From Thermoplasmatota archaeon (GTDB taxonomy: Archaea > Thermoplasmatota > Poseidoniia > Poseidoniales > Thalassarchaeaceae), in contig JAYZLP010000012.1 of the NCBI GenBank assembly GCA_036154155.1, forward strand, positions 22,393 through 86,392: a DNA stretch of 64,000 bases. The letters run 5' to 3'. This document shows, piece after piece, positions 26,660 to 56,209 of this stretch; within the stretch, counting starts at the first letter, position 1; each line of letters begins with the position of its first letter. The notes beneath the pieces were generated by a model. The model ran no database searches and had not been told where the DNA came from. It was given only the letters and a program-made list of their open reading frames with translations. The translations under genes and the position numbers were made by a program.

Positions 26660-26745
26660 TGGTGCAGAGGGCAGGATTCGAACCTGCGAAGCACTTTGCA
26701 CCGGAGCTTAAGTCCGGCCCCTTTGACCAACTCGGGTACCTCTGC
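26660..26745 (-). tRNA. tRNA-Leu(UAA): tRNA-Leu (anticodon UAA), class II with long variable arm, CCA encoded
   Basis: Reverse complement reads GCAGAGG-TA-CCC-GAGTTGGTCAAA-GGG-G-CCGGA-CTTAAGC-TCCGG-(long extra arm)-GCAGG-TTCGAAT-CCTGC-CCTCTGC-A-CCA. There is a 7-bp acceptor stem, anticodon loop CUUAAGC, a GGTTCGAATCC T-arm and discriminator A. Confidence 0.85.
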
Positions 26746-26862
26746 ACCCCCCGAGCACGGGTTCTACTCCTTGAATCGAGCGCTTTGGCAACCCTCAGAA
26801 CCGACATATCACGTGCCCTTAGGGCACGAACGCTTTAACGCCACTCCTGTGGGCGACAAGAC

Positions 26863-29796
26863 GTGTATGCGAGCAGCATAGCGAATAGCGCGTCCCGCCG
26901 TTTCAGGCTGGCTCTGGCACTTTCCCTGCTGATGTTGATGCCCTTTGGCATGCTTTCCAACCATCAATCAGAGCTTCCAGAAGAAGTCAGGATGGAAGCA
27001 GGCTCCGATGTCCAGTTGAACCTCTATACAATGTATTTCGCTTCCCAGAATTCTTCCGCAGGCGGCGATGGTTACATCACAACACAGGTTCCCGAGTCAG
27101 GTGGCCAAGAGTCGATGAGCGCCCTAGACAGCAGCATAGAGTTCCGAACTAGTCCGATGCTGTCGTCTTTAGATGTAGCCGGACGCCCCAATCATGGCTC
27201 CGGCTCCGGATCTTACTACCTGCCACTGGGGCTATTCATGAGGGCGACAGGCCCTGACACTTCCTCTGTGGAGTGGACAATTACACTCAAGTCATCAGGT
27301 AGCCAAGTCGGTTCGGTTTCTTGGAGCACTGATGCATGCAATCCAGGGCTAACTCAGAGCTGTAGTTTCGACCATGAGACATTTGAAATCGACTTAGGGA
27401 ACGACCAGAGATTCACCATAGACAAGGACGAGCGCCTCGAGCTAATCGTCGATGCCGATATGTCTGGTTGTGACAGTAGCGGAAGCCCATTCGGCTCTAG
27501 TTGCGAGGCCGAGGTGGCATGGAATGAGATAGACGGCGACGACAGATTCAGCACCCTGGAGATCGAGGCAAATGCAATATCCAACAGTCTCGTTCTCCTA
27601 CAGAGGGAGGGTGCAGAGCTCGCAGAGGGGCCAGAGTTGGAATGGTTTCCGAATGACATCCTGTCTGAGAGGGTTATGCAGTTCTCTTTCGATGTCAAGA
27701 GCAGTTTTGGCAGGTATGACGTAGACTCGGTAAGGCTATTGATGCGGGATCCCGACGGAATGTACCGGATAGACCACGTAATTGATGAGGACGACGAGGA
27801 AATAGAGGACACAAGCCAAGGCATCTTTGGAGAGTACCTCTGGTCATACCCTAGCGGCATCCCCTCTGGAGAATATTCCGTCGAACTCGAGGTTTCTGAC
27901 ATCCAAGGTAATAGCGTCATAATCGAGCACGAACCCGTGACAATGGAGCAGTGGGGAGTTGCATTGAACCACAGGTTGGATCGAACTACAGAATACATAG
28001 CCCCCGGCCAAACAACCCCGGTTCCACTGCAACTAGTTCACAGGGGAGACTCCACGAAGTCGATGGACGTGGAGTTAGAGGTCCTCACAAACTTCCCAAG
28101 CTCTTGGTTGCTAGAATTCGACTCACCAGGCGGATACACACTCAATGCTGGAGGCGATATTCTGAATCCAATACTCACTCTTACCGCACCCGAGGATCTT
28201 ACAGGTGCCCCAGGCTCCATAGACATCAGAGCCGTTGCAGAAGCAGAGGTCGACGGCGTACTTACCGTTGTTCACCAGGACACCCTTCAGATTGACTTGG
28301 AGAAGATTGACGTTTACCAACCTCCTCAAGTATCCATATGGTCAGAAGACCACGACATCCCAATAGCAAACTCTTCACGCCCCGATGACATTGACTCAAC
28401 CATTCCCAGGTATGTCGACTACGACCAATTCACTCCATTCCTTCTTGAGATTTTCAACACCGGTTTCGATGCTGACACATTCAGGATCGACGTACTACAA
28501 AGATCCAAGTCAATCATTCACGTGTACGATAATGACACTGGCCAGAGAATTCTGGAGGACGAAGGTGACGGCACTTTCCATACGGCTCTCTTGGATAGAC
28601 ACGACACTCAAACGCTGAGGCTGATGATCAAGCCCTCGGCTGACAGAGAAGACCCCGACATCGGCCCGGTCGAGATAGAGGTGGTGAGCTCAGGAAACGC
28701 CTCTCTTAGATCCACGGTACTATTCACTATCCAACGCACATTTGGAATAAGGGCCGAGGTTTCCTATGACTGCGATGGTTCACCACTTGGCCACATCAGG
28801 GTTTCTCTTTGCGACCCCGGACCAGGAAACGCGGAAGTCTCCCTAAGGGCAAAGATCACCAATACGATGACATCCGGGGAATCCGCCACATGGTGGAGGA
28901 TCCAGAATCCAGCTTCATTGGATGATAACACCGATAGAAACGCCGCCTACGGGCAGTGGCAATTCCGGATCGAGGACTCGTCGGGTAATGCCGTCCCCAG
29001 GGTCTCTCTTGCCCCCGGCGACGAAACCGAGGTATTCGTGACCATCACTCTGACAAATCAGGTAGAGTTTGGCAATCACACAGTTTACCTCAGAATAGTT
29101 GAAGATACCACTGATGACGATGCCAAGTACTTCGATCTGCCAATGGTGTTTGAGATTGATCCCGATGACCCCAACTTGGAAATCGTACAAGTAACGCCCA
29201 ATAGACTTCTAGTCCCGGGGGAGTCTTATCCTATCCAGATGAAGGTCAAGAACTTGGGCAATAGCCCCCTCACAGTTCTCTTGGAGGCTGAAGTTGACGG
29301 GACCGGTTGGTCCGTTGACATCGATGGCCCATCGGGATCGGTTCTGATAGTGCTTGGTGCATTCGAAGAAGTCACATTCGTATTGGACGTTAACGTACCC
29401 GACTCTGCAAACAATGGCGAGACCGTAGATGTCCTAGTTTCGGCAACCCCATTCGACACGCAGCAGAGCTGGCCCGATGATGCTACGGCAGAGAAGACCG
29501 TTGTGATGAGGGTAGGTATTTCGTCACTAATTGACAGACTTGTAAACGAGATTACACACCCCCGACTTTCAACCTACATCGTGGGAATAGTTGCAGCAAT
29601 GCTACTCATCGCAGGAATCCAAGGCGCTATGAACAGGAGAAGGTGGAAGGCGCATATGGCATATTTAGATGCAATTTCCAGTGATTCAGACGAGGATTTG
29701 GAAGATGAAGAAGACGATGATTTACCCGCTCCAGTTGTGTCGATAGAAGAGGAAGAGGACGATGTATACGAGGATGACGACATCGAACTGGTTTGA
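26863..29796 (+). CDS. Large (977 aa) secreted type-I membrane surface protein with CARDB-like domains and poly-acidic cytoplasmic tail
   Basis: Signal peptide (LALALSLLMLMPFGML), long Asp/Thr/Ser-rich ectodomain, single C-terminal TM (IVGIVAAMLLIAGIQGAM). Tail is DSDEDLEDEEDDD...EEEEDDVYEDDDIELV. Confidence 0.6.
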   Translation: MYASSIANSASRRFRLALALSLLMLMPFGMLSNHQSELPEEVRMEAGSDVQLNLYTMYFASQNSSAGGDGYITTQVPESGGQESMSALDSSIEFRTSPMLSSLDVAGRPNHGSGSGSYYLPLGLFMRATGPDTSSVEWTITLKSSGSQVGSVSWSTDACNPGLTQSCSFDHETFEIDLGNDQRFTIDKDERLELIVDADMSGCDSSGSPFGSSCEAEVAWNEIDGDDRFSTLEIEANAISNSLVLLQREGAELAEGPELEWFPNDILSERVMQFSFDVKSSFGRYDVDSVRLLMRDPDGMYRIDHVIDEDDEEIEDTSQGIFGEYLWSYPSGIPSGEYSVELEVSDIQGNSVIIEHEPVTMEQWGVALNHRLDRTTEYIAPGQTTPVPLQLVHRGDSTKSMDVELEVLTNFPSSWLLEFDSPGGYTLNAGGDILNPILTLTAPEDLTGAPGSIDIRAVAEAEVDGVLTVVHQDTLQIDLEKIDVYQPPQVSIWSEDHDIPIANSSRPDDIDSTIPRYVDYDQFTPFLLEIFNTGFDADTFRIDVLQRSKSIIHVYDNDTGQRILEDEGDGTFHTALLDRHDTQTLRLMIKPSADREDPDIGPVEIEVVSSGNASLRSTVLFTIQRTFGIRAEVSYDCDGSPLGHIRVSLCDPGPGNAEVSLRAKITNTMTSGESATWWRIQNPASLDDNTDRNAAYGQWQFRIEDSSGNAVPRVSLAPGDETEVFVTITLTNQVEFGNHTVYLRIVEDTTDDDAKYFDLPMVFEIDPDDPNLEIVQVTPNRLLVPGESYPIQMKVKNLGNSPLTVLLEAEVDGTGWSVDIDGPSGSVLIVLGAFEEVTFVLDVNVPDSANNGETVDVLVSATPFDTQQSWPDDATAEKTVVMRVGISSLIDRLVNEITHPRLSTYIVGIVAAMLLIAGIQGAMNRRRWKAHMAYLDAISSDSDEDLEDEEDDDLPAPVVSIEEEEDDVYEDDDIELV

Positions 29797-29869
29797 TTAG
29801 TAGCGAGTCATTGTCCGAACGACGCTCCATTCCTCTTAAGTGCCCTACTTTCCGCCCTAGTACAAGGGG

Positions 29870-32800
29870 TTGCGTAGCATGGACTCATTTAGTCAATCTA
29901 CAGGGTCGGACAAGGACGGCCTCAGGAAGGTCAGGTCGGCCATTATTTTCTCGGCCCTGATGCTCATTTCTTCGTACTCAGCATTGGAGTTCGCCGCTTG
30001 GGAGGCGTTGGCTTCAACCGATCAGGACGGCGATGGGCTATCTTACGGTCTCGAGTTCTACATCAATACCCAGCCTCAGGACTGGGACACGGACAATGAC
30101 GGTCTTCCTGACGGGTGGGAATGGCAGTACGGACTGAATCCACTCTCTGCTACAGGAGATAACGGATCCACGGGCGATCCAGACGGAGACTCACTTTCAA
30201 ACCTGAATGAGTTGATGTTCGGAATACCCGCGAACTGGGACGACCCAAACACTCCAAATGAGCTGGACAACGGCGTTTGGTGGAATGGCACGGTACCCGT
30301 AAGTAACTGGGACGAGGAAAGCGCCATGCAACTCATACAGGGACTGGGCTCCGACGGTGCTGATGAGGATCCGTGGGGAAACATTTGCTTCAACACATTT
30401 GATGATGACAAGGATGGTATGGTCGACAATTTCGACGGTGACGGTGACGGTGATGCGAACTGCACAAGTGATGACGATGACGGTGACGGCCTCATCGATG
30501 AGGATCCAAATGGTTGGGATACCGACGGTGACGGCATGCCTGATGGATGGGAAGTTGCAAATGGGCTAGACCCAACCTCACGTACCAACCAAGACGGAGC
30601 ATCGGGGGACCCCGATGGAGACGGGCTAGTGAACCTGAAGGAGTTCATTAACCCAGCTTGGGGGACCCGAAATGGAACTACTACCCCGCCCACACAGTAC
30701 TTCAGACCGGGTCCACTTGCCATGACTGCCACCGAATCGCCCTGCAATCCGGTACTGCAACTTGGACCAGGGGGGTGCCTGATATTCACAGCAGAGGTTG
30801 ATGGCATTACTTCTACGGATCCTCAGAATAACGACACTGATGGCGACGGACTCAATGACTCTCACGAAGCACTCGTTCTGCTAACCGACCCAACAGCCCC
30901 GGACACCGATGGTGACGGAATTAGTGACGGTGTGGAGGTAAATGGCCAGTATGGGGACCCTCCCCTGGCAAGCGACCCAAGGGACAACAATACTGACGAT
31001 GACCAGTTTGACGACGGAGAGGAGGACCTCAACGGGAACGGCATCGTGGATGAAAATGAGACAGATCCAACAAGGATCGAGGATTCTGGTGACTTCGATG
31101 ACGACGGCATACCTAACTGGGAAGAAAACATGACATGTACCCTCTGGAATGTTGCAGATACTGACGGCGGGGGTATTAGCGATGGCTCAGAGCTCGACCC
31201 GTCCCACGGAACAGACCCCTGCACTTCGCTTCAAACACTGAACCTGACAATAGTCGACTTCGATTCCACAAACATGATTCTCACGTTAAATGATACATCG
31301 GCACTCGATCAAACACCCGAGGATTGGAGGCAGAATGGTGAACCCATGGGGTACTACGTGTCATCAACAAATGGCAGCCTCACAGGATTCAGATTCACGT
31401 CCATCAATGGCGATTCATTGAGGGGCATAGACACGGACAAGCCACCTGATGCCACATCTGTGACATTTGTCAACTTCTCTTGGTGCTGGGATCAATCCCT
31501 AGGTTTCTCTAACGATCCAATTTGTGACGATGACTATTTCGACACTGATGGAGACGGGCTAGCCGATTGGGAGGAATCTACTGGGAGCTTTGGTTTCCTT
31601 TCCGATTGGAACATGTCAGACACCGATGGGGACGGGGTGAATGACCTAGATGAGATACTCAATCTAACTGACCCGAGCAATCCCTGTGATAACCTTCTGG
31701 ATTCAGATGGGGATGGTCTAAACAACTACTTTGAGAATACAACAGTTTGCTTGATTGCCTTCGGAGAATTGGGCGGAAATGGCACTACTGATACCTACTT
31801 CACACTGTGGAATGTAACTGACACTGACAACGGGGGAGTTACTGATTTCCAGGAGTATCTGGATGGGACGAACCCTCAGAACAATCCTAACGATGACCTA
31901 AATCCAGTGGATACCGATGGCGATGGGATACCGGACACCATTGAGAACTCTACGGGCACTGACTGGAGGGATCCGGATACTGATGGAGGGGGAGTTCCCG
32001 ATGGACAGGAGTGCACGTCCGAGTTTTGGGATATCAATTGTCTGAATGCCGATGGAAATCCGTGGGATCCGACGGATGATATAGACCCCAACATGATGTT
32101 CTTCGAGGCGATGAACACCTCGATGGGGGTGGATCCCAATATCACGCATTACTGGAGGTGGCATACCTATGACTTCTATACCGGGATTTCTTGGGGGGTC
32201 AACACTAGTCTCGTTGGGAATACGCAGATGTTCCCAGGCTTCTCGACCACACAGGGCGTTGCCGATCAGCAGTTCTGGGATGGTTCCGAGGTCCTTGGTT
32301 GGGAGATATCCCTTGAGTCGGGGGCGCTGATATTCCCTGGCGAGGAAATTATCGTACCCCATAACGCCGTAAATTACACTGGTTGGACCGATGCTAATGC
32401 TGGCCTTAACTTCTCGAACTTCACCAGGGATGCAATAGTGGACGGCGCAACCATAGACACGCTCTTCGTTACCGCCCCGCAAGTTCTGATCACCCAGGCG
32501 ATTAGGGAAAATACAACAGAGTTCTCCAATAGCAGCTATGCGACGGACCTCCCAAGCTCATATCTGGCAAAGGGCAATGCCGCCAGCTTCGTCAACTCAA
32601 TCACAATGACAGTAATCAATGAGTCAGGGGCGTTCTCCGCTTGGGACAGGGTATCCGCAATTCAGGACTTCATCATTAATGGCAACTCAACTACCTCTTT
32701 CTTGAGAAACCATAACGGGACCGAAGTCGGAGTCCTCGATGACGAGGATGACCTATCCTATTGGATTCTGAACAACTCGTTTGAGGGCGACTGTGACCAG

Positions 32801-35800
32801 TTCAGCACTCTTTTCGCCGTGATGCTAAGGTCCGCGGGAATCCCCGCCCGCAAGGTCACGGGTTTCTCTGGTGGGAAGTGGACAGGTACTTCTTTCGAGG
32901 TCTACGGCAAGGACTTCACAACTTGGGTAGAGGTGCACCTCCAGACAAACTCCAATCTAGGTAACGCGGATCTAGGATGGATACCCTTCGAGGCATGTCC
33001 ATCCCTGTCTACCGTCGAAGTAGTAGACGAGAGCTGGGGCCCAATCTGGTTCGACAGGGACCTTTCATCAGGCAATATTTCCCTGGATGGAATACTGAGG
33101 TTCACTGAAAACCAGACCTCTGTGGCGAATATTACCATTGACATGTACTTGGTAAAATCCAATCAGACGGAGAATGTCCCCGGTTCCGCTGCATTAGAGG
33201 AGCATTTCGTTGGTACAGCAATTACCGACGAGAATGGTTCCTTCAACATCACAGGGCAGCCCCAAGAGGTCATCAATCCAGGATATGGCGCTCTGGTTCT
33301 TCGAACTTATGAGGATGGATACGTCGGTTCACAGGGGATCACCTTCCCCTGGAGGATGAACATCACTGACGACGTAGCCATGTCCATTACCGAACCAGAG
33401 CCGGTGGATGAGCCAAAGATAGGGATCGGAGTGAACACTACGGTGACAGGCGAGATTTCACTCTCAAGTGAACCTTACAATGACATCACTCAACTGGATA
33501 GCCTACAGGTGGTTCTCAATTACACAACCACAGCCGATGGCCCGGTTAGCCTAATCTCCAGCGTCGGGGCTGGCGGCTATTACGAATTCTCCGTCCCAAT
33601 AGACGAATCTGAACAGGAGGGGCTGATAGCAGCAACCTTGAATTTCCTAGGCTGGCACGAGGAGGATCTCAACAATGCAACACCTCCCCTCTACCACTTA
33701 CGCCCCCAGTCTGTTGGATTCAACCTAAACCTAACACCGGCGCCTAACCTTACCGTAATTCTGGAGGGTCACGGGGCCAACAACACCATACTTGAGATCG
33801 ACCAGCCAATATACCTCAACGGAACTGTTCTGAGTAGGTCGGCCATCCCCGAGGCACTCAATGGCACTCTGACACTGCAGATGCGAAGATCCGCAGCCAA
33901 CGGGCCCTTTACAACCCTCAACTCGTGGTATCTTAACGACTCCGATTGGACGGGGGCCCTCGGGCAATTTGCAGTCAATTGGTCCTTCTCTGCATCAGAG
34001 GTACCCATTCCCGCTGGACTGGTAGAGATTCGTTACCAGTTCGAGGCGGACGGCCTCTTCGCGAAAGACGAGTCTGTGGTAATCGATGAGCACGGAGTAA
34101 AGAGCTACGTAAATTTCAGCTATATTCTGAATCCAGCTCCCGTGGGGTCAGACTCCGAGGTAGAAGTGACATTGTCAGACCATACTGGAAACTCCGTTGC
34201 GAGCTTCGTCGGGGACTACACATTGGACTTCAACGGCGAATTGGTATGGAATCAGTCAGATCCAGAGCTCCCGCGCGTGATGGTAACATGGAGGCCCACT
34301 ATAGACGTGGAGGCAGGGGACTACCCGTGGCAGCTGAATTATAGCGGGTCCACATGGCTTCTTCCAAACAGCGTGTTAGATACTGTCAGAGTCCAAGGCA
34401 GAGCCGACGTCTCATTTACCCTGGGCTCGGACTGGACCCCTAGAGGGCAATCATCATGGATTTCTGGTTTCGCCAGGGATATCAATCTGAACAGTACGAT
34501 TCTAGGAAATAACTCTTCCATCATCGTAAACATGGAGGTGCCATCCGACCAACCGCCTACTCCAGATGGCCTGGAAGCTCCACCTGTCACCTACAGGCTG
34601 GGGGAGCAGTGGATAGACAACACTACCGGCGAGTACAACATTACATTCCAGATGCCTAGCGGTGTAGGTGCCGGCGTCTACGACCTCAGGCTGATCCTTG
34701 ATTTCGAGAAGAACCCCCCCGCAGGTGGCGCATACTACCTTGTTTCCGGTGCAGTGGTGCTGCAAGCAGGCGTACAGACCGAGTACGTAGTGGAGGCAGA
34801 GCCATTGCAGTCCATCGTGATTGCAGGACAGACACTGGTAACGAATGCCACAGTCACCGATGTGGAGAGCAATGACAGGCTGCAGAACACCACCGTCGAC
34901 ATTTACTTCGATTGGGGAGGGCCACTGCAGCAGGTACTCAACTCCACAGTCACTGGTTCCGATGGCGTCGCAAGGTTCACTCCGACCATTCCTGCTGACG
35001 CCCCGCCCGGGTACTACGATGTCCGTCTACACGCACCGGATGACCTAACTGATAGTTTGACTACACCCAATGCAGGCAGGTGGATAGGGAATGAGAGCAC
35101 AGTGAACCTCACCGTGCAGGTCGCGAGTAGCATCAGAATTGACAATGCGCCATTGCCTGAAGTCACCGCCGGGCAATTTTTCCAACTGCAGGGGCAGGTC
35201 CTAGATGGGGTGGACCAGAATCGTTCAGTATCGGGCCCCATGACGCTGGAGGTCTTTTTCCTGAACGACCCCAGTGAAACCCTGGTCACAGGGCATGTCA
35301 CCGCAGCTAACGGATCGTTCTCTATAATGGTGCCAACTGATCCACTGGGGGATGGCGTGACTAACGGCCTCAAGACCGTCATAGTAAGCGTTGAAAACGG
35401 TAGTACCCCGTTCTACCTTACTGGTTCCGGGAATGAAACCATCCTGGTTCGAGGAGTCACCCAGTTCACTGAAAGGAACCCCCTACTCAATACAATAGTG
35501 GACAGGGGGACATCCATCACATTCGGAGCAAAGCTGGTAGAATCTAGCGATGGGGACAGGCAACTTTCCGACATGTCGGTTTCCGCATTATTCCACGAGA
35601 CGTGGCTAACCCCCGAACAACCGACAAATGGACAAGGCGTCGTCAACTTCACATTCTCAGTCCCTCATTCACATCCACTCGGTTTGATCCCGATAGTTCT
35701 GATGTTCAATGGCTCAAATGGTTCAGACACTCTCCATCCATCATCCACGGTTATCAACACAATCACAGTCAGGTCTCCAACCAACATTACGTTCGATCCA

Positions 35801-38800
35801 ATTACTTCCAACCCTGCTGCAGGGGAGTTCCTCGACATTAGTGGAACTTTGACTTCAAGTAATGGAAGTGGAATAGTTGACAGATCAGGAAATGCCCTGA
35901 ATCCGACTCTAAACTTCGCCATCGACGGGGACACCAATTCGTTCTCAGTCACTGGTGGCACCGTAGATGCCAATGGCACATGGTCGGCCAGAATCTTCCT
36001 GGACCTTTCTTTCCCACGTGGTACGCACAATATCACCGCCTCATATACGCCGTCCGTCAACTACTATGGCGCCAGTTCGGAGGACGGAATTTTTGACAGC
36101 AGAGGTTTCTCCATGCTATCCATAATTTCCCCAACTGATTTGGACCCCGATGAGAGAACTGTCAGAGGGGACAACATCACACTCAACATGTCATTGATTG
36201 ACAACTCCGGGCAGTTCGTCTCCGGAGCCCAGGTCGATGTTTCCATAGACGGGACGCCAGCATGGTCCGGCCTCACGAATGAGGATGGCATCGTCACTAC
36301 TGTAATCCCGACTGATTCCAACAGGGCTCCCGGACCGATGACAATCACCGCCACATTTGCAGGCTTCAATGGGACCACTGGCCTACTGGGTGATGAGACA
36401 TGGACAAGAGTGGTGATACTCGCCCCAACGGTTCTAGATGTGACTTCAATTACAGGCTCCGCAATCGCAGGCGAGTCAGTCACGTTCACTGGAACCCTGC
36501 TGGACGAGCATGGTGCACCCCTGATCGAGAATGGCGAAGAAAAGGGAGGTGTCGTCCACCTTTCCATAGATGGAATCGACGTAGGTCCTGTGTACACTTC
36601 AATTTCAAACTCCTCTACTGGGATTTGGAGCATTACTTACGATTTACCTCTTGATACAGACTATGGGGGCCACACTTTCACCGTCGACTTCCTCGGCGGT
36701 TTCACTTGGGTCGATCCCATGGGCCAGGGCGACTCCCTGAATCCAGAATACTATCTCCCCTCCACAATAACACAGGAATTCAACGCGACCCAGACATCCC
36801 AGGTTGTTCTTACGACCCCCCCAGGGGAAGTCGACAGGAACGAGCTGCTTCTCATAGAGGGAATGCTGACCGATGGCGCCGGAAGGGTACTTCCCGGACG
36901 AGATCTAGATGTCTATATGAACGACCAATTCCTAACATCCCTCTCTGTATCCGACAATGGTACGTTTAGCTTATTCTTCCCCGTACCTCCGGACATGCCT
37001 CTCGGACCAAGGAATGTTAGGATAGAATTTGGTGGAGAGGAGTTCGTAATCGCCTCTAACTCTAGCACTATTTTCACCGTTTTCGGTCCTGTCGAGGTGA
37101 GTGTTGAACAACCGGTTCCGGTCGCTGTTGGAGACGTACTACAACTCAGTGGTTCCGTCAAGGATAACCTTCCGAATGGGTGGCTTGGAAACCACTCGCT
37201 CCAGATCTTTATTGATGGGATCCTGATAGGCACTACTACTACTGATGAGGACGGGGCATGGTCCCATTCTTGGGTAGTATCCGAGTTCCTAGACGTGGGT
37301 CAGCACACACTCACGGTAATAGCCCCGGATCAGGGATATCACCGCGAAGGCTCCGTAGAGGCAAACCTGACAATAGCATACCACACCGGAATGACACTGC
37401 AAGTCGAGAACAATGTGGTGACAAGGGGCGGCGCATGGAACCTAAGTGGTAGGCTATTCGACGCCGACTCTGACGGCAATCCAGGTTTGGAGGGCAGGGT
37501 GCTTTCCTTCCTGCTAGATGGTGAAGAGGTTTCCACCATTACTACAAGCATAGATGGAACATTCAGCATTAGTCATGAACTGGGTTACCTGATTTCAAGG
37601 GGTTCACACGATGTATCATTGGCCTTCGCCGGCGAACAGCTGTACCTTTCAAACGTGATCAATGCGACTGTGTATGCCAGAGCCGACATTCAGATAGAGA
37701 TTCTATTCCTTGAGGATGAGGTCGTCAGAAGCGATGGAAATAGGCCGATTAGGGTTCTCGGCAGGATAATTGAAATCGGTGGGGAGGGCAACACCATGGA
37801 GGAGATGGACCTCTCGCTATACTGGGAGGATTCTCTAAGGCCGAATACGAAGATAACATGGGATGAGACAACAGGGCAGTTCCTGGTCGAGTCGAATGCA
37901 ATTTCAACAATGCCTCCTGGTGTGGCCAGCATGTCGATAGTTGTGGACCCCGACTCCTCAAGGTTCCTGAATGGGGGCGAGATTGATTTCGAGGTGATAA
38001 TCAAGGTTCCAGTGAACTTTGAGTTCCTCCCCGACTCTTTGTTCCTAGAAATAGGTCAAAGCTCCATGTCAGGAAAGGTGAATGTCACTGCCACGGACAG
38101 GGCCGAGGTCATAGAAGGAGTTTCGATTACCGCTAGGCTAGTCAACGAGACCAGTACACATTTCACTGTGGTAGGGGTCACCGATCAGAATGGCATCTTC
38201 ACATATCAGTTCGAGTCATTCCATGAGAACCATCCTCTATGGGACAGGGACTTCTGGGGGGACTTGTCGGTAGAGTTCAGTTCCGATTCCGACATTATCG
38301 ACCCCATTGACGCTGCTCGACTCTCACAGTTCGCCGTTGTCGATGTAGAATATCAGCCGGAGCAGGGGGCATCATTGGTGGGCCCTGCAATGACCGCACT
38401 AGCCATCCTTGTGATAATCGGACTAGCCGCGGCTGGCGTAATTGTGCTAAGGAGGAGGAAACAGGCTGCCATCGATGAGCTAGCAGGGGTGTTCAGCTAC
38501 ACAGCAGAGCTCTTGGCAGCAGGAGATGAGGTCAGGGAGGCTATATTCAACTGCTATGAGGGACTCTGTCAGATACTGATGAGCAGAGGTTTCCTGAGGA
38601 GAGATTTCGAGACAGTCAGGGAGTTCGAGCTAGCAATAAGAAACGCACTCCCAATAAGCGAGCAGGCATTGTTGTCTCTCGACAGAATTTTCGAGGAGGC
38701 CAGATACTCAAGCCACGTTCTCGGCGAGCCCCATAGGGAGAGTGCCCAGATGGCACTGAGCTCAGTTCTCCAAGAGATAGACCAGCTCGAGGAAGTCCCA

Positions 38801-38833: not shown

Positions 38834-39303
38834 TCTTCCAGGGACAATCCCAAGGTGTGTCCGTTCCATGATGCATCCGAAATGAATGACCCAGTAGGAA
38901 GTCTGAAAGTCCTCAAAACTCCTCCAAAACCACTGGGCGCGATAATTCGAGCTATAGTGCCAGACTCGCCCTCCATGACTTCGAGGACGACCCCCCTTCT
39001 ATTCGCCGAAGGCATTGGAATCTCCATGTAGCTACCCTCTATTGAACCTCCTAGGTCAGCAACCATCTCGCCTATAGTTGTGACATCGCTGTTCGCCATC
39101 CTAGTCGACTCAGGAATGTCTCCAACCTGCCCCTTGAATTCCTCGTGGGACTTCGAGACCTCAGACATGTGCGGCAGGTCAGAGAGAAACTGCGCATGTG
39201 CTTCCGAGGCGGTAACATCGAGGCCCAAACCGACTCCTTGGAATTCATTTTCCGTAACAGCACCGCCGTCTGAGTCGGCAATTACAACCCTCCTCCACGT
39301 CAT
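38824..39303 (-). CDS. Hypothetical protein (about 160 aa) downstream of XPD helicase
   Basis: ORF-track entry 38824..39375 trimmed to the internal M (MTWRRVVIADSDGG) to avoid overlapping the helicase 3' end. No recognised motif. Confidence 0.35.
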   Translation of the reverse strand: MTWRRVVIADSDGGAVTENEFQGVGLGLDVTASEAHAQFLSDLPHMSEVSKSHEEFKGQVGDIPESTRMANSDVTTIGEMVADLGGSIEGSYMEIPMPSANRRGVVLEVMEGESGTIARIIAPSGFGGVLRTFRLPTGSFISDASWNGHTLGLSLEDHS

Positions 39304-39328
39304 GCTATCGTTGCCCCCAATGGCCCGA

Positions 39329-44889: not shown

Positions 44890-44893
44890 GGCA

Positions 44894-45661
44894 TTAATCG
44901 ACATCATTTTGCTCCACGACCTCATCTTCGTGGAGGGATGATAGGAACTTCTTGAGCCTCTCAGTCTGAGGGCTGTTGATGATAGAGGAAGGCCCCTCTT
45001 CTGCCACAACTCCCTGGTCCATGTAGATAATTCGATCAGCTACATCCCTGGCAAAGCCAATCTCGTGAGTCACTACGACCATTGTCATTCCTTCGTCAGC
45101 AAGTCCACGGATGGTCTCCAACACCGAACCTATGAGTTCTGGATCAAGGGCGCTGGTCGGCTCATCGAAAAGCAGAACCTCCGGCTTCATGGCAAGGGCT
45201 CTGGCAATAGCAACACGCTGCTTCTGCCCGCCGGAAAGGTTGCCCGGGTAAGCATCAATCCTGTCGAGCATATCGACTCTTTCCAGAACTGACATTGCTA
45301 CTTCCTCTGCTTCCATCTTGCCCATACCTTTGACATGTCTCAGGCCCAATGTAATATTGTCAAGGACCCTAAGGTGCGCAAATAGCTCGAATGACTGGAA
45401 AACCATCCCTATCCTGGATCGCAAGTCATTTACATCGGTGTGAGGGGTGTTAACCTGCTCCTCCTTCAAGAAAATCTTGCCGTCAGTAGGTTCTATCAGT
45501 CGATTTATGCACCTTAGGACAGTCGACTTACCACTTCCAGATGATCCAATTATGGCAACAGACTCCCCTTGTTTTACTTCAAATGATATGCCCTTGACAG
45601 CATGAACGCCACCCGCATAAATCATATGCAGATCTTCCACGTCTAGTACCTTTTCTGGCAT
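44894..45661 (-). CDS. ABC transporter ATP-binding protein (polar amino acid type)
   Basis: Walker A GSSGSGKST, signature LSGGQKQRVAIARAL, Walker B LLFDEPTSALD. Confidence 0.9.
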   Translation of the reverse strand: MPEKVLDVEDLHMIYAGGVHAVKGISFEVKQGESVAIIGSSGSGKSTVLRCINRLIEPTDGKIFLKEEQVNTPHTDVNDLRSRIGMVFQSFELFAHLRVLDNITLGLRHVKGMGKMEAEEVAMSVLERVDMLDRIDAYPGNLSGGQKQRVAIARALAMKPEVLLFDEPTSALDPELIGSVLETIRGLADEGMTMVVVTHEIGFARDVADRIIYMDQGVVAEEGPSSIINSPQTERLKKFLSSLHEDEVVEQNDVD

Positions 45662-47857: not shown

Positions 47858-47930
47858 TGTTTGGCATTCTTCCTTGGATATAGTCTAGGCGGACCGCCAA
47901 TTCTAAGTCAAATCGCCCCCTGATTACCCC

Positions 47931-48908: not shown

Positions 48909-48954
48909 CATCACGTCAGTAATGTTCATCGTCGTGCCCCTTCCGAAACGTGAC

Positions 48955-49866: not shown

Positions 49867-50493
49867 TTATGAGTGCCTTCTCATTAGAATCCCACATCCC
49901 CTTTTTTCTGCTGATCTTAGTATTGACAGAAGGTGCCTAAATCCATAGTCGACCCCTCCATCAAGTGGCTCATCTCCCAACGTAGTCCATCTTCCAGAAC
50001 GTATCGAGGACCTCAACTCACTAACTTCCTGCGGGTCAATCCACCCAAGAAGGGACATTCCACCGAAACCATCCCGGAATCCCGGTTCTCCAAGATTCTC
50101 TTCAGATAGCCCGTCACAAAGCTTAGCAAGCAACTCGTGCAATACAGTCATGTCACCCCTTTGCCTAGTGAACGAGATAAGGTACGAAATCACATTGCCG
50201 TCTTCACTGGGAAATCTGCCGAGCTTCTCTCTAGTCGCCATCGAGTCAAGAGGCTCAGCCATGCCTCCCTTAGGCCCCCAGTCCCCGCTAGCTAGGTACA
50301 GCAATGTGGCGGGATCAAACGGGGCCTCTTGGCCCTGACGGAGGCCTTGGATGTCAACAGACAGTGGGCACATAGAAAGCAACTCCTGGTGATCTCCGCC
50401 CAGGGATGCTTGAATTGGGGGAACAAGATCGATCAAGTCCACAGTAATTGGGTCGAATGTGTAGAATGCAGGAGTCGGAGGCGCTCTAGACAT
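49867..50493 (-). CDS. Hypothetical protein
   Basis: ORF-track entry is 216 aa; no recognised motif. Start trimmed to MSRAPP. The 3' end is flush against purC and the 5' end abuts the giant gene stop. Confidence 0.35.
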   Translation of the reverse strand: MSRAPPTPAFYTFDPITVDLIDLVPPIQASLGGDHQELLSMCPLSVDIQGLRQGQEAPFDPATLLYLASGDWGPKGGMAEPLDSMATREKLGRFPSEDGNVISYLISFTRQRGDMTVLHELLAKLCDGLSEENLGEPGFRDGFGGMSLLGWIDPQEVSELRSSIRSGRWTTLGDEPLDGGVDYGFRHLLSILRSAEKRGCGILMRRHS

Positions 50494-50506
50494 TGAGAAA
50501 CCCCGA

Positions 50507-53500
50507 TTACCTTTCACCCATGAGTCTGTTTAGGCGGCTTTCGAATGAATCGTCCTGACCAATTTCCGAGGCAGAAGTCCCCTCAGAGGTCACCTTTTCC
50601 CTATCTTCATCAGCAGATTCAGGCAAAACCTCCTCTTCGACATCGGCTATTTTCTCCTTGAGAGCGGCCCTTTTCTCAAGGGCCTTCTTCTCTACCGCCA
50701 ACCTAGTTTTCTCCATCATCTCTCGGCCTTCTCTGTAATTGCTGACCATCCATGAAAGTGCAATCGAAGCACCGATGACCATGGCAGCCGCGGCAACTGC
50801 CGTACTCGAATCGCTAATTCCACTATCCAATTCTTCGCCACCCGAAAGAATCACGCTGGCCACGTTATCCGAAGGATCAGAATCCTGGTCCCACGGGAAG
50901 TCACAGCTTATCGTGGCGACCATCTCGGTTGAATCCTCAACATCCGGCCTATCTATCGATGGCTTAGGGGCTAGGGCATTTGCAGATGTCATATCCACTA
51001 TGTGGACGGAAGTGTATTGCCCCGCTTCGATTTTTATGCTGCATTGCGTCCCTGAAGGGAGCAGTTCGAAATTTTCCCTCCTTGTGGAAATTTCAATTTT
51101 CTGGCTAGCACCCTGTCCATCCAGTTCTAGCTGAACCAAACCGACGTTCCAATCCGTTCTCCGAACTTCGAAAATCTGGGACTGGGACGTCACTAGGATT
51201 CCCCTAGAGTCCAGCAATCTGATTGAAATCTCCCTGTTACCCGGAAGTGGAGCCCATTCTTCCGAGGTCAAGTTGACTATTGCAGTCGTATTCCCCCCTA
51301 CAGTTCCGGATTGAGAAATCATCATGTCCCCCATGTCGTCGACTAGAATTATCGTGTAATCGAAAGGCTCGGTTCCATTTCCTATCGAACAGCTTGCCGT
51401 AATTTCGCCTATGCTGCCATAAACCAAGCAACTAGCCCCCCTGGTGACTGGCTCCACCACTATTGACCTGTATTCCAGACTTCCTTGGTCGGAACCCGAT
51501 GAAACCGAAATAGTGCCACTTCCACTGGATGTCGCCGGCCATGCCCAACCGCCAAGGGTACTCCAAATCAATGACCCTGAAAATGAATCAGTAACAATAG
51601 ATCCGGAATCAGTTCCATGAATTCCCAAAAGCGCGCTATCGCCACTAGTGGACACAATGACAGGGGAACTCGCCCATGAAAAATCCCCCTTCTCGGTATC
51701 CAGATTTATTTCCCTCTGGTTTCCGGCTGTATCTTCCGCCAGAATTCGTATGGTCTTTACACTGCCATCCCAGTCTTCACTAGGAACCAACTCTAGTGGT
51801 ACGCCGGTTACCTCGCCAACACCCAGTACGACCTCGGCTCTTCCTGAGACGGACCAACCAAGTGGAAGACTTAGGACTTGTAATGAGATGGTGCTAGGTG
51901 CGTTACCAAGGTTTTCGAGCATGGCCAATGGGTGTCCTCCCAAATCACTCACTAACCAGTCCCCTTCTCCGGTAAGAGAGAACTCATGCGTGACTGCCAC
52001 CCTTAGTGGGAAAACTATCTCGGAGGCCGCACTAGAGTCGCCTTCCCTTAGGCGGAGGTGAAGCTCCACGGCCCTTCCATAGACCGCATTCTCTGGAGGG
52101 GTGATGTTGAGAATTAGTGGCGCAGTCTCCCCTGGTGAAAGGACGGGGAGCTCGTCGGGCTCATCTACGGACCACCCTGACTCCCCTGTAATGAACATGG
52201 AAGCATATGCTCTAGTGGGCGAGTTACCAGACTGCACAACTGTGAGCTCTATCTGCGAACCTAATGGGTCGACCTCAAGATTCGCCTGATCAGCTATCGC
52301 GTTCCATGATGGGACATGGCCTGCCTCGATAGTGAATGAGAACGTAGAAACCTCTTCTCCTTGGGAGGATGCGGTGACTACGACGGTCATGGATGATCCG
52401 CTCCATGATTCAGCATCGACAGCTGAAACTATGCTCATAGAAACAGTCTGGTTGACTGCGACATTTTGCGCCGAGTCCCCAGTGGCGCTCCATCCTGTAG
52501 CCGAGTCCCCGTCCACTAGGTCAAGCGAGGTCACCACATCAAGATCGATTCCATCTTCCAGATTGCCCACATTTTTTGCATCAACGTCCAAGGAGAACGA
52601 GACTCCCGGATCAATGACGAAAATACTGCCATTGGCCATAGGTACAGAATCGACACTAGCGCCGATATCCCACCTGTGGTCCTGCCTGGCCTCAAGGGCA
52701 ACGGCGTCGGAGGATGATACTCCTGGATCGCCTTGTGAAATTACGGTGAACTCAATCCACAATGGAACTCCTGCAGGCGTACTTTCAGGTAGAGTTACCG
52801 TTACTGGAATAGTTGTCAGGCTCCCCGAAGTAAGTCCGACTTCTCCTATTGAGAAATCCACAACTACTCCAGGGTCGCTGGAAATATTGGAGTCTATAAT
52901 CACCGAATAGCCAAGTGAGTATACGTCATCTCCGTTACCGGGATTCTCGAGTCTGAGGACGACAAGGGAGCCTTCCTCAACATCAACCACATGCGGCTGA
53001 TCTTGGGGCGAAATTACAGCCACATTCGCTCTGAAAATCTGCAATACCTCCAACGTTATGATTAGGTGGTGTTCCGAAGACTCCTGACTCGTGTCCGAGA
53101 AATAGTGGAATGCCGGAGAAGCATCCTCGGGGAGGTTAGCAATTAACGAACCCGAAGATGTTCCGCCAGAGGGTCCGGCCATAGTTATCATATCACCCGA
53201 AACTGAGATGTCACCAGTTCCGACCCAGGACCACCCTGGCATTGCCATCCCCATTTCAGAAAGTGACCATGTGATTGTCCCGCTTTCAGCCGGCATTTCA
53301 GAAATTATCGACCATTCGAGTCCATTCGCGGGAACACTTCTGATGTGATTTCCAGAAACAACGTTCGAAGAATGGAATGTCAATTGTATGGTCTGGCATG
53401 TCTCTTCTTCCGTGCCCGTGCCAACGCACATGGTTAGAGGCGTGCCAACGGAATCTCCCACTGGTGCGTCGGAAGGAACCGCTAGGGTTGCAACTAACGC

Positions 53501-56137
53501 CAACTCTTCTCCAGGAGCCAAAATTAACGCTGACCTTTCGACCCCCTCCATGTCGTATAGTCGTAGGTCATTGCCCCATGGCGTGCTGTCCCATGAGAGG
53601 AGAATCTGGTCTTCCTCGGCATTTCCTAGATTCTCGGCCATGAACCATGCCCCTGCATCTTGACCAGGTAGTCCGTAGCCGCTGCTCTGAGATGTTCCAT
53701 CGGGCCCTCTAAGTGAGAGTCCCCTTGTTCTATTCGCCTCTATTGGAAGATTCGCAGAAACAGAAACGTTCGAGTCTTCATCGAGGGTCAGGGTCAGTGA
53801 TAGGTATCCCGAGTCCGAACCCAGTGCTTCGGAAGGCGCAGTTATGGTAAGATCAGGGGACCACGTCTCATCCACTCCAATCTCGACATTGCTAATTCCT
53901 TCCTGCGTGGAGTCCGACCACGTCCAACCCTCAGGAAGTTCGGAGTCATCTACGCTGAGGGACCATGTCCCAGCGAGCCTCCCAGTAGATCTCACAGTCG
54001 GGCTAGCAGTAGTGCTACTGCCCGGAGATACCCTGATGGGCTCAGTCGGAATTTCGAAAGAAGCATTGTACGTCGGGACGATGGATACAATCTTGCTAGC
54101 AATGTCATTGTCCGTCCTAGTCTGAGTCAGGTTCCCGAAACTGTCTAGCTCCAATGTGAACTCATGGTCCCCAAGTGGCCCCGACCATTCAACACTGAAT
54201 GTTTCAAAGGATCCTGATCCCGTTGGCTCAACGGGTTCCAGAGATGTGAATGTCCTCCTCCCAATTTCCATTCCATCGGCATAGAGGACCGCATCAAATT
54301 CCGAATCTATGGGCCCTGTTCCAGAGTTCTCGATAAATGCAGACACCGTGACTTCCTCGCCCGGACTGGGGGCAGTTGGATCCAACTCTATCCCACCTCC
54401 ATCAAGGAGGGGCCTAACGTCGGACCTCTCTAGCGAGACAACGGTGCTACCGATGATGATGTCCAGAGTGCCGTCTCCATCGATGTCGGCCAACGCAGGT
54501 GAAGACCAAGTTCGGTGGTTCAGCTCTAACTCATTGGCCCATTCAGTGTTGATAGCAGACCCAGTTCCCTCCGCTCCATCGAACGCCCATAGGGATCTCC
54601 CATAGGCGACTAGGAGCTCAGGCTCCCCACTACCGTCAATATCCATCCAAACTGGGGGTGAGACAGCTATCTCGTCGTTTGGCGCCCCACTGCTCTGCTC
54701 GAGATCCCGGTGCCATGCCTCCTCGGGGCTAGAGCCATCGACATCATGACAACCTGTGACTCCGTGTCTAGCTGTTGCAGTTTGCCACCAAGTGACCCAA
54801 CAGACTCTCTCGATGGTCCCATCATCGTCTGTATCGATAACAATCGGCGGCGCGTCAGCGTATCCATTATCTGCCTCAAATGACCATATCTCAGCACCGG
54901 TGCTGATTTCTAGGCCTCTGAATTCAGCGCCATCAACAGCACCTGACCCGTCGGCATCTGTAGGTATGGTTACTACAATTTCAGGAGTCTCATCACTATC
55001 TAGATTGGCTACAACTGGGCCAGGGAGTCTGATGTGAGGCGCATCAGAGTCGCCATCTATGTTATTCAGGCTAAGGCCGTCCCATCCTGAATCCCCCGTC
55101 AACGAGTCAAGCCTCCAAACCCACATTCCGCCATTGCTGTACTCAGTGGTCGTCAATACAACATATCCAGTATTCTCATCCGTCTGTGCAAAGGCAGGGT
55201 CAGAAGGATGGCTCCCCTTGTCCAGTGTTTTTTCCCACAGCGTGGCGGGTGAGCCGCTAGAAGGCAGACTCAGTGCAACAATAACCGGATCCCCACTGTT
55301 CTCGTTTACCGCGGCAATTACCAACTCTGCATCTCCATCAAGGTCCAAGTCGGCAAGAAGTGGCTGGGCAGTTGGCTTGTGCCCCCCCAGCCATCCACTG
55401 ACATATGGCCCAACGTCACTACTCACCATCAAGTCGTCATCCTCCCAAGTCCAGATTGGCTGTTGCGAACTACCCGCTCCGGGGTTCCATCCGGTAACCG
55501 AGCAGAATAGTCTGGGCGACCAAGCATCGACATTCAGAGTCCCGCCTTGGTCATACACCGCTATCACCTCCGGCTTCCCATCGTCATCCAAGTCCACAAC
55601 TACAGGTGAGGCCTTGACTTTCTCTGTAACTCCGAGACTAACTTCCCATGCTAGATCAGAGTCCTCTCCCTCAATGATCCTCATGTAACTCTCACCTGAT
55701 GCAGAGTCAGTCTGTACAATTATGGTGTAAAGCGAGTCTCCTCCGCACCTCTCTTCCGAGGAAGGGTCAGTGGATAGGGACGAGGTGAAATCAGCAATAG
55801 GGGTGCCAAGAGAATCAGTACCTATTGGATCGGAACCAAAATCCCAGTTTATCACCGGGTCGACTATTGAAAGTAGGCCGGCCCCTGAATCCGAAGAATG
55901 CACATGGCCTGGAGGATTGGAAACCCTATCGGGAGTCCTACCCGGTTGTGGCCAGGCTTGGCCGCCGTCCGACCAGGGGTCAATTCCGGAACTCCTCATT
56001 TCATGGGAATCATCCAGGCTCCTCGAAACCCCTGTAGTGGCCAACATTGGCGATAGTGACATAGCTAGCATAATCGACACCGCAAAAGCTGCCCCAATTT
56101 TCATGGAAAGGAGTTTTTGCGTAGTAACAACTGTCAT
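50507..56137 (-). CDS. Giant (about 1876-1894 aa) surface protein with FG-GAP/integrin-alpha-like beta-propeller repeats, multiple CARDB/Ig-like domains, C-terminal TM and coiled-coil cytoplasmic tail
   Basis: Signal peptide (MKIGAAFAVSIMLAMSLSPMLA). FG-GAP-type Ca-binding loops (VVDLDDDGKPEVIA, LADLDLDGDAELVIA, VANLDSDETPEIVV, IDTDDDGTIERV, LADIDGDGTLDIIIG). TM AVAAAAMVIGASIALSWMV, then a 78-aa K/E-rich tail. The ORF track starts at a GTG at 56191; start set at the first plausible ATG. Confidence 0.7.
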   Translation of the reverse strand: MTVVTTQKLLSMKIGAAFAVSIMLAMSLSPMLATTGVSRSLDDSHEMRSSGIDPWSDGGQAWPQPGRTPDRVSNPPGHVHSSDSGAGLLSIVDPVINWDFGSDPIGTDSLGTPIADFTSSLSTDPSSEERCGGDSLYTIIVQTDSASGESYMRIIEGEDSDLAWEVSLGVTEKVKASPVVVDLDDDGKPEVIAVYDQGGTLNVDAWSPRLFCSVTGWNPGAGSSQQPIWTWEDDDLMVSSDVGPYVSGWLGGHKPTAQPLLADLDLDGDAELVIAAVNENSGDPVIVALSLPSSGSPATLWEKTLDKGSHPSDPAFAQTDENTGYVVLTTTEYSNGGMWVWRLDSLTGDSGWDGLSLNNIDGDSDAPHIRLPGPVVANLDSDETPEIVVTIPTDADGSGAVDGAEFRGLEISTGAEIWSFEADNGYADAPPIVIDTDDDGTIERVCWVTWWQTATARHGVTGCHDVDGSSPEEAWHRDLEQSSGAPNDEIAVSPPVWMDIDGSGEPELLVAYGRSLWAFDGAEGTGSAINTEWANELELNHRTWSSPALADIDGDGTLDIIIGSTVVSLERSDVRPLLDGGGIELDPTAPSPGEEVTVSAFIENSGTGPIDSEFDAVLYADGMEIGRRTFTSLEPVEPTGSGSFETFSVEWSGPLGDHEFTLELDSFGNLTQTRTDNDIASKIVSIVPTYNASFEIPTEPIRVSPGSSTTASPTVRSTGRLAGTWSLSVDDSELPEGWTWSDSTQEGISNVEIGVDETWSPDLTITAPSEALGSDSGYLSLTLTLDEDSNVSVSANLPIEANRTRGLSLRGPDGTSQSSGYGLPGQDAGAWFMAENLGNAEEDQILLSWDSTPWGNDLRLYDMEGVERSALILAPGEELALVATLAVPSDAPVGDSVGTPLTMCVGTGTEEETCQTIQLTFHSSNVVSGNHIRSVPANGLEWSIISEMPAESGTITWSLSEMGMAMPGWSWVGTGDISVSGDMITMAGPSGGTSSGSLIANLPEDASPAFHYFSDTSQESSEHHLIITLEVLQIFRANVAVISPQDQPHVVDVEEGSLVVLRLENPGNGDDVYSLGYSVIIDSNISSDPGVVVDFSIGEVGLTSGSLTTIPVTVTLPESTPAGVPLWIEFTVISQGDPGVSSSDAVALEARQDHRWDIGASVDSVPMANGSIFVIDPGVSFSLDVDAKNVGNLEDGIDLDVVTSLDLVDGDSATGWSATGDSAQNVAVNQTVSMSIVSAVDAESWSGSSMTVVVTASSQGEEVSTFSFTIEAGHVPSWNAIADQANLEVDPLGSQIELTVVQSGNSPTRAYASMFITGESGWSVDEPDELPVLSPGETAPLILNITPPENAVYGRAVELHLRLREGDSSAASEIVFPLRVAVTHEFSLTGEGDWLVSDLGGHPLAMLENLGNAPSTISLQVLSLPLGWSVSGRAEVVLGVGEVTGVPLELVPSEDWDGSVKTIRILAEDTAGNQREINLDTEKGDFSWASSPVIVSTSGDSALLGIHGTDSGSIVTDSFSGSLIWSTLGGWAWPATSSGSGTISVSSGSDQGSLEYRSIVVEPVTRGASCLVYGSIGEITASCSIGNGTEPFDYTIILVDDMGDMMISQSGTVGGNTTAIVNLTSEEWAPLPGNREISIRLLDSRGILVTSQSQIFEVRRTDWNVGLVQLELDGQGASQKIEISTRRENFELLPSGTQCSIKIEAGQYTSVHIVDMTSANALAPKPSIDRPDVEDSTEMVATISCDFPWDQDSDPSDNVASVILSGGEELDSGISDSSTAVAAAAMVIGASIALSWMVSNYREGREMMEKTRLAVEKKALEKRAALKEKIADVEEEVLPESADEDREKVTSEGTSASEIGQDDSFESRLNRLMGER

Positions 56138-56190
56138 CAGAGTCAAATTTGGTTTTCGTAACCCACTTGAACGTTCGCCCCATATTCTCA

Positions 56191-56209
56191 CTCAGACCTA
56201 CGGTCTGAG
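56191..56209. promoter_or_regulatory. 8-bp inverted repeat (CTCAGACC-TAC-GGTCTGAG) followed by ATATAT in the divergent region between the giant surface-protein gene and the rpoE operon
   Basis: Read directly: ctcagacc tac ggtctgag, then catatatc. Confidence 0.3.

Follow-up and report, generated by a model that had tools for sequence, protein, structure and literature searches.

Two conserved loci encoding giant type I surface proteins in Poseidoniales

Three giant genes and their shared topology

The 64,000-nt stretch of DNA analysed here (the window; positions 22,393 to 86,392 of contig JAYZLP010000012.1, assembly GCA_036154155.1) comes from a Thermoplasmatota archaeon of the order Poseidoniales, family Thalassarchaeaceae, and carries three very large genes that we refer to as A, B and C. 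Gene A (26863..29796, + strand) encodes 977 residues. Gene B (29870..38833, + strand) opens as a 2,987-residue open reading frame (ORF) at TTG 29870, and its ATG at 29879, which aligns with the N-termini of orthologues, gives a product of ≈2,984 residues; gene C (50507..56137, − strand) encodes 1,876 residues from its ATG, in an ORF that opens at 56191. An earlier note on this DNA, made from the sequence by eye, had described a cluster of three giant type I proteins taking up about 17.5 kb, over a quarter of the window; we find the same three ORFs, which sum to 17,529 nt or 27% of the window. We find, however, that they do not form one cluster: they belong to two vertically inherited core loci of Poseidoniales that encode giant type I surface proteins under strong purifying selection.

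In a hydropathy scan, all three proteins show a hydrophobic stretch at the N-terminus and a single pronounced transmembrane (TM) segment towards the C-terminus, at residues 905-923 in A, 2842-2860 in B and 1780-1798 in C (1798-1816 in the numbering of the full ORF). Basic residues follow each TM segment, in agreement with the positive-inside pattern, and lead into a tail of 54 (A), 127 (B) or 78 (C) residues, while the remaining hydropathy peaks contain charged residues and sit in beta-rich surroundings. The signal-like segment, large ectodomain, single TM segment and tail that had been proposed for all three are thus confirmed, as is the absence of a PGF-CTERM signal, since no NCBIfam match and no PGF motif ahead of the TM segment is found in A, B or C, and tails of 54-127 residues are too long for it. 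The three tails are distinct, poly-acidic in A and matching DUF4129 in B as the note had it; that of C, which it called a coiled coil, is found to be K/E-rich and helical in character.

This layout is not the default of the window, in which the S8 and M28 peptidases are anchored N-terminally and only one small, 194-residue protein is built the same way; all other sizeable ORFs are housekeeping genes or of unassigned family. The genes are flanked, as previously stated, by a tRNA-Leu(UAA) gene (26660..26745, − strand) and by rpoE' (Rpb7-type, 56311..56925). BLASTP returns a short similarity between CARDB/NEW3 immunoglobulin (Ig)-like modules of A and C and nothing between A and B, and we reject the possibility that the three are paralogues, as they share no homology beyond these generic modules.

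Two vertically inherited core loci

A scan of species-representative genomes with an alignment of B returned at least 574 B-encoding stretches, and the loci of the best 80 were analysed. Each of these loci is from a different assembly, with Poseidoniales as the source of essentially all 80, so that each genome contributes one copy among the 80 loci. Each of the three families has at least 120 full-length orthologues of near-constant length: among the matches listed, orthologues of A have 925-986 residues (all at 70% identity or more) and those of C 1,833-1,911 residues (97-51% identity), and those of B, from 91% down to 41% identity, have 2,937-3,017 residues, plus one match of 2,660 residues. 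The few orthologues with a named source are assigned to Thalassarchaeaceae, Thermoplasmatota or marine group II (MGII), and the survey of orthologues and gene order bears out the suggestion that these are lineage-specific (Poseidoniales/MGII) surface proteins. A full-length B orthologue at 64% identity is also present in a record titled 'Chloroflexota bacterium isolate SP4360' (L023, PBAZ01000027.1), which is probably a contig of MGII origin that was wrongly binned with a bacterial metagenome-assembled genome.

Gene order around A and B is strongly conserved. Of the 57 testable loci, 54 have an A-like gene immediately upstream of B and the other three have one farther upstream; a gene for XPD helicase lies downstream of B in 64 of 64, and the tRNA-Leu(UAA) gene keeps its position in all of 32 orthologous loci, where it is a fixed left landmark rather than a functional part of the locus. 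The order 2-oxoacid dehydrogenase, LipA, SDR, FolB, tRNA, A, B, small ORF, XPD, RHH is kept down to 41% identity, on a contig of 1.06 Mb. Gene C has its own setting, in which C and an ORF of ≈208 residues lie between rpoE'-spt4-S24e and purC in all six C loci. The A-B and C blocks are joined, via GDH-ABC-permease, only where B is at least ≈58% identical (30 of 50 loci); in 19 of the 50 the conserved order ends after GDH, and in L089 the C block is intact yet unattached to the XPD/B block. Two more genomes (L007/L038 and L008/L009) have B and C on one contig. The restriction of the linkage to B identities of ≈58% or more, together with the break in L089, establishes that these are two independent core loci and not the single three-gene system that had been proposed: locus 1 comprises tRNA-Leu(UAA), A-B and XPD, locus 2 comprises rpoE'-spt4-S24e, C with the 208-residue ORF, and purC, and the two are adjacent in one subclade only.

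This separation raises the question of whether A, B and C have a common function at all, or are three unrelated exported giants with a generic type I topology that local gene order has brought within 30 kb of one another in one subclade. The lack of paralogy and the lost linkage both favour the latter, as do the restriction of glycosylation-sequon enrichment to B (see below) and the presence, just past the window in related genomes, of a fourth and different giant (DUF7151). Yet the A-B pair is near-universal, type I topology is not the rule among exported proteins of the window, and all three are at once giant, extremely constrained, constant in length and equipped with a conserved tail, an uncommon combination; we consider the absence of any common function improbable.

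The earlier note had argued that the genes do not lie in a mobile island, and this is upheld. A, B and C do not differ from their neighbours in GC content or GC3, and the comparison of tetranucleotide composition that the note had suggested shows a sole dip (r = 0.74-0.75 at 28-36 kb) that coincides with the D/N/T-rich N-terminal half of B. The ORFs scanned, which span the whole 64-kb window, include none with an integrase or transposase domain. A genomic island or horizontal gene transfer is rejected on the basis of GC and GC3, the tetranucleotide profile, synteny that is conserved across Poseidoniales rather than strain-variable, the fixed tRNA and the lack of mobile-element genes.

We quantified constraint as dN/dS, the ratio of nonsynonymous to synonymous divergence. 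For genes of the A-B locus the comparison was made with the nearest relative, L010 (UBA438), for which dS is unsaturated at 0.08-0.25, and gives 0.009 for A and 0.028 for B, to be compared with 0.006 for HD, 0.011 for GDH, 0.033 for E1α, 0.051 for XPD, 0.066 for LipA and 0.092 for SDR; neighbouring housekeeping genes span 0.006-0.17 overall. No 150-codon window of B exceeds ≈0.08. Compared with L091, C has a dN/dS of 0.085 overall and 0-0.03 across its propeller, and the 208-residue ORF 0.046. In farther relatives dS is saturated and dN/dS unusable, and dN by itself again puts A and B with the slowest-evolving genes. Compared between pairs of genomes, the giants have diverged at about the rate of XPD, SDR or DTD. 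We detect no DNA tandem repeats in these genes and no internal protein repeats, including by BLASTP of B. Low dN/dS, constant length and the lack of repeats identify A, B and C as constrained core genes, not variable adhesins. Bacterial giant repeat adhesins of the RTX, Bap, LapA or SiiE type usually contain near-identical tandem repeats, vary in length and between strains, and are often borne on islands. The proteins studied here resemble them in having thousands of Ig-domain residues, calcium-binding motifs and a putative ligand-binding distal region, but differ in having no detectable internal repeats, a near-fixed length, dN/dS of at most 0.09 and a fixed core synteny.

Small insertions accumulate at the A-B locus while A-B itself stays in place. 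A few genomes contain small extra genes near the tRNA, including an 807-residue He_PIG/YHYH gene (L001:4416-6839) and a 250-residue ORF in L004, which also has a 307-residue ORF between A and B (its two extra ORFs lie at 4875-5627 and 8946-9869); L076 contains ≈2 kb of extra sequence (~4.8-10 kb). The small ORF that follows B in the conserved order encodes 183 residues (window 38824-39375, − strand), overlaps both the stop codon of B and the start of XPD, and has the orientation of XPD. It has a tblastn match in 70 of the 80 orthologous loci at 25-47% identity, which points to fast divergence, and no match in Pfam, NCBIfam or the PDB. We considered this ORF as a partner of B and rejected it, since its orientation and its overlap with the start of XPD place it with that gene.

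Domain content and conserved tails of B, C and A

From its N-terminus, B is composed of the signal or anchor segment, TSP3 repeats, a transglutaminase fold, an Ig stalk, the TM segment and DUF4129. The calcium-binding TSP3_bac repeat region covers residues ≈51-720 (≈670 residues; 30020..32029, + strand), in which Pfam TSP3_bac matches three stretches (E = 1.3e-9) and the NCBIfam models CglD and MtsD match partially. Fifteen DxDxDG motifs, with invariant Asp and Gly positions, lie within residues 51-701, and a sixteenth motif lies at residue 2531. Column identity reaches 0.74-0.87 over residues 51-450, and this region and the cytoplasmic tail are the most conserved parts of the protein. The stalk (residues ≈1060-2830, ≈1,800 residues; 33047..38359, + strand) matches diverged Ig-like domains (Big_3_5, MG2, Big_7, CarboxypepD_reg), and its length would accommodate roughly 18-20 of them. 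An RGD tripeptide at residue 2099 was considered as a candidate motif and set aside because it is not conserved.

The transglutaminase-like core of B (TgpA-type, residues 963-1045; 32756..33004, + strand) is located in the ectodomain, between the two hydrophobic segments, and matches Pfam Transglut_core (PF01841) with E = 6.6e-13 and 49.3 bits, well above the 23-bit cut-off; its top sequence match in the PDB is Pseudomonas aeruginosa TgpA (6G49). Of the Cys-His-Asp triad only the Cys is kept. Cys975 is invariant in alignments of 41 and 22 sequences. The place of the canonical His, two positions ahead of an invariant Trp1019, is taken by T, S, G, A, D or N in all family members examined, and that of the Asp by E, Q, D or N. 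A second invariant cysteine, Cys1043, lies next to the Asp position and suggests a structural disulfide in the core, which is only averagely conserved (column identity 0.60-0.67), below the TSP3 region and the tail.

These features bear on the possibility that B is catalytically active outside the cell, as a transglutaminase or as a papain-like cysteine peptidase or amidase, and cross-links or trims envelope proteins or glycans, with A as its substrate or cofactor and the stalk positioning the domain. The invariance of Cys975 and the near-universal adjacency of A and B would fit such an activity, as would the retention of catalytic residues in two outgroup proteins and the measured activity and essentiality of the TgpA periplasmic domain, both described below. 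The replacement of the His in every family member examined, the loose Asp position, a core less conserved than the domains on either end of the protein and the possible structural role of Cys1043 all argue the other way, and we regard an active enzyme as unlikely.

The TM segment and DUF4129 tail of B occupy residues 2842-2987 (38393..38833, + strand; TM segment, nt 38393-38449), with the TM segment and an RRRK stretch preceding the 127-residue cytoplasmic domain. In the window protein, Pfam DUF4129 scores E = 3e-5 and 24.4 bits, just below the 24.8-bit cut-off; a PF13559 match is precomputed for many of its orthologues, and related outgroup proteins score 30-47 bits. The core of the domain is nearly invariant across the family (FSYTAELLAAGDE.REAIF.CYE.LC..LM.RGFLRRDFETVREFE.AIR.ALPISE..L..LDRIFEEARYSSH), and column identity is 0.83 over residues 2901-2950, relative to a whole-protein mean of 0.61. 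Tails are conserved in the orthologues of all three families, A, B and C, which argues for specific cytoplasmic interactions. Neither of the two findings that the earlier note had said would refute it, tails that differ between orthologues or genes in strain-variable islands, is made here.

B is further distinguished by its glycosylation sequons. It contains 85 N-X-S/T sites where 32 are expected from its own composition, a ≈2.6-fold excess (z = 11), and the excess is found across the family, with 74-99 sites per sampled orthologue (z = 7-15). Of the 85 sites in the window protein, 51 keep their position in half or more of the 41 sequences aligned. The sites are dense over most of the stalk and sparser in the last 500 residues, and A, C and control proteins have z ≈ 0. 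This enrichment provides independent support for an extracellular, heavily N-glycosylated ectodomain and makes B a candidate N-glycoprotein.

A profile of the B tail was searched against 1.84 billion representative proteins. At E ≤ 1e-30 the search recovers 26 clusters, among them B-type proteins of full length and shorter sequences that are probably fragments, and a second tier comprises proteins of 1,000-2,650 residues with TM+DUF4129 at the C-terminus, one of which is annotated as Thermoplasmata. Ten second-tier proteins were checked: five contain a transglutaminase core, two of these five also contain TSP3, and a TgpA_N fragment precedes the core in two (P0382 and P0442). Ig arrays likewise occur among these outgroup proteins. 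The outgroup proteins P0382 and P0422 retain the Cys and the His in the canonical Cys…H-A-W-x-E arrangement, and P0382 also retains the Asp.

TgpA itself (PA2873 of P. aeruginosa; 668 residues in the TMHMM legend and 688 in the text of the paper) is a polytopic protein with a five-helix DUF3488 N-terminal membrane domain and an intact Cys-His-Asp triad, and its periplasmic domain has measured transglutaminase activity and is required for viability (PMC3507681). B resembles TgpA in having a transglutaminase-like core outside the membrane followed by a TM segment and a cytoplasmic C-terminal DUF4129, and outgroup proteins of 1,700-2,600 residues resemble it further in that a TgpA_N fragment still stands in front of the core. 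Unlike TgpA, B has ≈2,984 residues, has lost the catalytic His and shows a massive excess of sequons; it places ≈670 residues of TSP3 before the core and ≈1,800 residues of Ig stalk after it, and has a single N-terminal hydrophobic segment in place of the polytopic DUF3488/TgpA_N domain, with no TgpA_N match. B is a giant form, lacking the catalytic His, in a wider and hitherto undescribed class of TSP3/TgpA-like/Ig array/TM/DUF4129 proteins derived from TgpA-type proteins. A neighbourhood of MoxR and DUF58 genes, as associated with TgpA-type proteins, was looked for and rejected as the context of B, as neither the 64-kb window nor the regions flanking the orthologous loci contain an AAA_3/MoxR or DUF58 gene.

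Pfam and NCBIfam identify FG-GAP repeats, CARDB and NEW3 in C. The FG-GAP beta-propeller head spans residues ≈90-590 (nt 54368-55870, − strand), with eight blades in the predicted model, and is followed by a CARDB/NEW3 Ig-like stalk (residues ≈600-1770; nt 50828-54340, − strand), the TM segment (nt 50744-50800, − strand) and the 78-residue tail (nt 50510-50743, − strand). In the tail, a juxtamembrane N.RE and a terminal D.FE.RL.RL are conserved and flank a variable acidic linker; the terminal 'DDSFESRLNRL' may resemble a MIM1-type amphipathic helix, a likeness on which we do not rely. The 208-residue ORF (49867..50493, − strand) encodes a soluble protein of unassigned family directly downstream of C on the same strand. 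It follows C in all six C loci, is 48-82% identical among those genomes and has no Pfam, NCBIfam or PDB match; its constant position suggests a conserved partner gene of C and, as a candidate, a cytoplasmic partner of the protein.

In general layout, a propeller on a stalk with one TM segment and a tail, C is like an integrin alpha subunit. It is unlike one in that the propeller is eight-bladed in the model and not seven-bladed, the legs match CARDB/NEW3 and not thigh/calf domains, and the juxtamembrane sequence WMVSNYREGRE contains no GFFKR-type motif. No vWA/betaI-domain gene that could supply a beta-subunit partner lies nearby. Bacterial integrin-type propellers, described in 2011, are without TM segment and legs (PMC3192720). 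The likeness bears on the proposal of the earlier note, a system for cell-surface adhesion or cell-cell interaction with inside-out coupling. In an integrin-like, bidirectional form of this proposal, extended to contact with particles, the C propeller and the B TSP3 region would bind external ligands and the tails would transmit or receive signals. TSP3, FG-GAP and Ig arrays are adhesin-like, and the conserved tails argue for some cytoplasmic interaction; the degree of constraint, constant length and single copy fit typical adhesins less well, and we find no signalling domain. We consider this proposal possible, though well short of probable.

Protein A is the least characterised of the three by domain, with only a weak NEW3/Ig match near the membrane (NEW3/CARDB-type, residues 775-867; nt 29185-29463, + strand) and no match of its family profile to the PDB. 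Its TM segment (nt 29575-29631, + strand) leads into the poly-acidic tail (residues 924-977; nt 29632-29793, + strand), in which 23 of 54 residues are D or E. A juxtamembrane NRRRW..H.AYL, D(I/L)P.P(V/I) and a near-terminal DDD(I/L)EL(V) are kept even in orthologues that are 32-50% identical. The N-terminal SRRFRL(ALAL) (window 26867-26920) was considered as a twin-arginine signal and rejected, as the RR is absent from the orthologue consensus (GxxRLAL); the N-terminus is probably an ordinary Sec-type signal.

A constitutive envelope reading and neighbouring genes

We favour the reading that the three giants belong constitutively to the structure of the MGII envelope and are organised or tethered from inside through their tails, and put its probability at roughly one half. 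The very low dN/dS, the lack of a hypervariable segment, the near-invariant length and the single copy per genome fit a constitutive envelope better than typical adhesins. Such a coat would be membrane-anchored, calcium-stabilised and partly glycosylated, and the transglutaminase fold of B would most likely act in it as a non-catalytic binding or scaffold module. The tails (DUF4129 in B, the acidic motifs in A, the terminal amphipathic motif in C) would tether or position the coat through cytoplasmic partners, with the 208-residue protein the obvious candidate partner for the tail of C. A structural coat would leave room for the TSP3 and propeller heads to bind ligands, though this would not be its main point.

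Several observations weigh against this reading. Its support comes from the conservation pattern and domain content only, and strong purifying selection is also compatible with a conserved receptor or enzyme function. An invariant Cys975 is unexpected in a purely non-catalytic domain unless it is disulfide-bonded, for example with Cys1043. No known partner was found for the tails of A, B and C, just as none contains a recognised signalling domain. The ectodomain of A is predicted to be all-beta, but its AlphaFold2 model has a pLDDT of 43 and is unusable for a fold search, only the membrane-proximal Ig domain being confident. Finally, every locus with a family in its title is from Thalassarchaeaceae (MGIIb), although the three families likely reach beyond Thalassarchaeaceae, given at least 574 species-level matches.

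Archaeal S-layer glycoproteins, e.g., that of Haloferax volcanii, have a signal peptide, Ig-like arrays, dense N-glycosylation sequons and a C-terminal membrane anchor, and are constitutive and vertically inherited. All three proteins resemble them in their exported, membrane-anchored topology, and B, though not A or C, does so in sequon enrichment. B differs in being several times larger, in having a conserved cytoplasmic domain and not a PGF-CTERM/archaeosortase lipid anchor, and in its TSP3 and transglutaminase-fold modules. In a bolder version of the favoured reading, B together with A would be the principal envelope glycoprotein of MGII, an S-layer equivalent built on a calcium-stiffened, ~3,000-residue TgpA-derived pseudo-enzyme whose DUF4129 couples the coat to the machinery of assembly, shape or division, and C with the 208-residue protein would be a second, propeller-headed anchor. 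We hold this version to be speculative and rather unlikely; if true, DUF4129 and the TgpA family would for the first time have a role assigned to them, and the chief surface antigen of MGII, or the layer that viruses contact, would be known.

'Thrombospondin genes' have been described as widespread in Poseidoniales and read as adhesion genes (PMC6461757), and beyond this generic remark we found no description of the A, B or C families in MGII in the literature. On the constitutive reading, the default adhesin interpretation of MGII 'thrombospondin'-type genes would be corrected. MGII are among the most abundant archaea of the surface ocean and are uncultured, with an uncharacterised cell envelope, for which A, B and C are order-typical, extremely constrained and concrete candidates, and possible targets for metaproteomics, for antibody or cryo-electron tomography labelling and for studies of virus–host contact. 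B is in addition a giant, His-less, sequon-rich form of the essential and poorly understood TgpA/DUF4129 family. Should the more ordinary interpretation be right, these would be conventional envelope proteins, if large ones, and their interest would be moderate and mostly confined to the taxon.

Several neighbouring genes merit a brief description. In related genomes the fourth giant gene (2,296-2,402 residues, Pfam DUF7151) lies just beyond the right edge of the window (L007:1-796, L008:1-1236, L089:1-527), after the S8 peptidase gene (window 61963-63273) and a gene of 385-405 residues and unassigned family whose 3' part is window 63293-63997; its presence makes this neighbourhood unusually rich in giant genes. 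An ABC-transporter permease (BPD_transp_1; window 45662-47857, − strand) is fused to an N-terminal PSII_BNR/Ycf48-like beta-propeller that follows a signal-like segment, an unusual architecture kept in L007, L008, L089, L090 and L091. The M28 peptidase (window 15009-16811, − strand) combines an N-terminal SAP domain, normally a DNA- or chromatin-binding motif, with one subsequent TM segment, which is an odd combination. The small ORFs searched have no matches in Pfam, NCBIfam or the PDB. The 194-residue type I membrane protein mentioned above (window 10278-10862, − strand) is conserved and of unassigned family, and a conserved 302-residue protein, also of unassigned family (window 57647-58555, − strand), is encoded between the genes for S24e and D-aminoacyl-tRNA deacylase, a place that it occupies in all six C loci.

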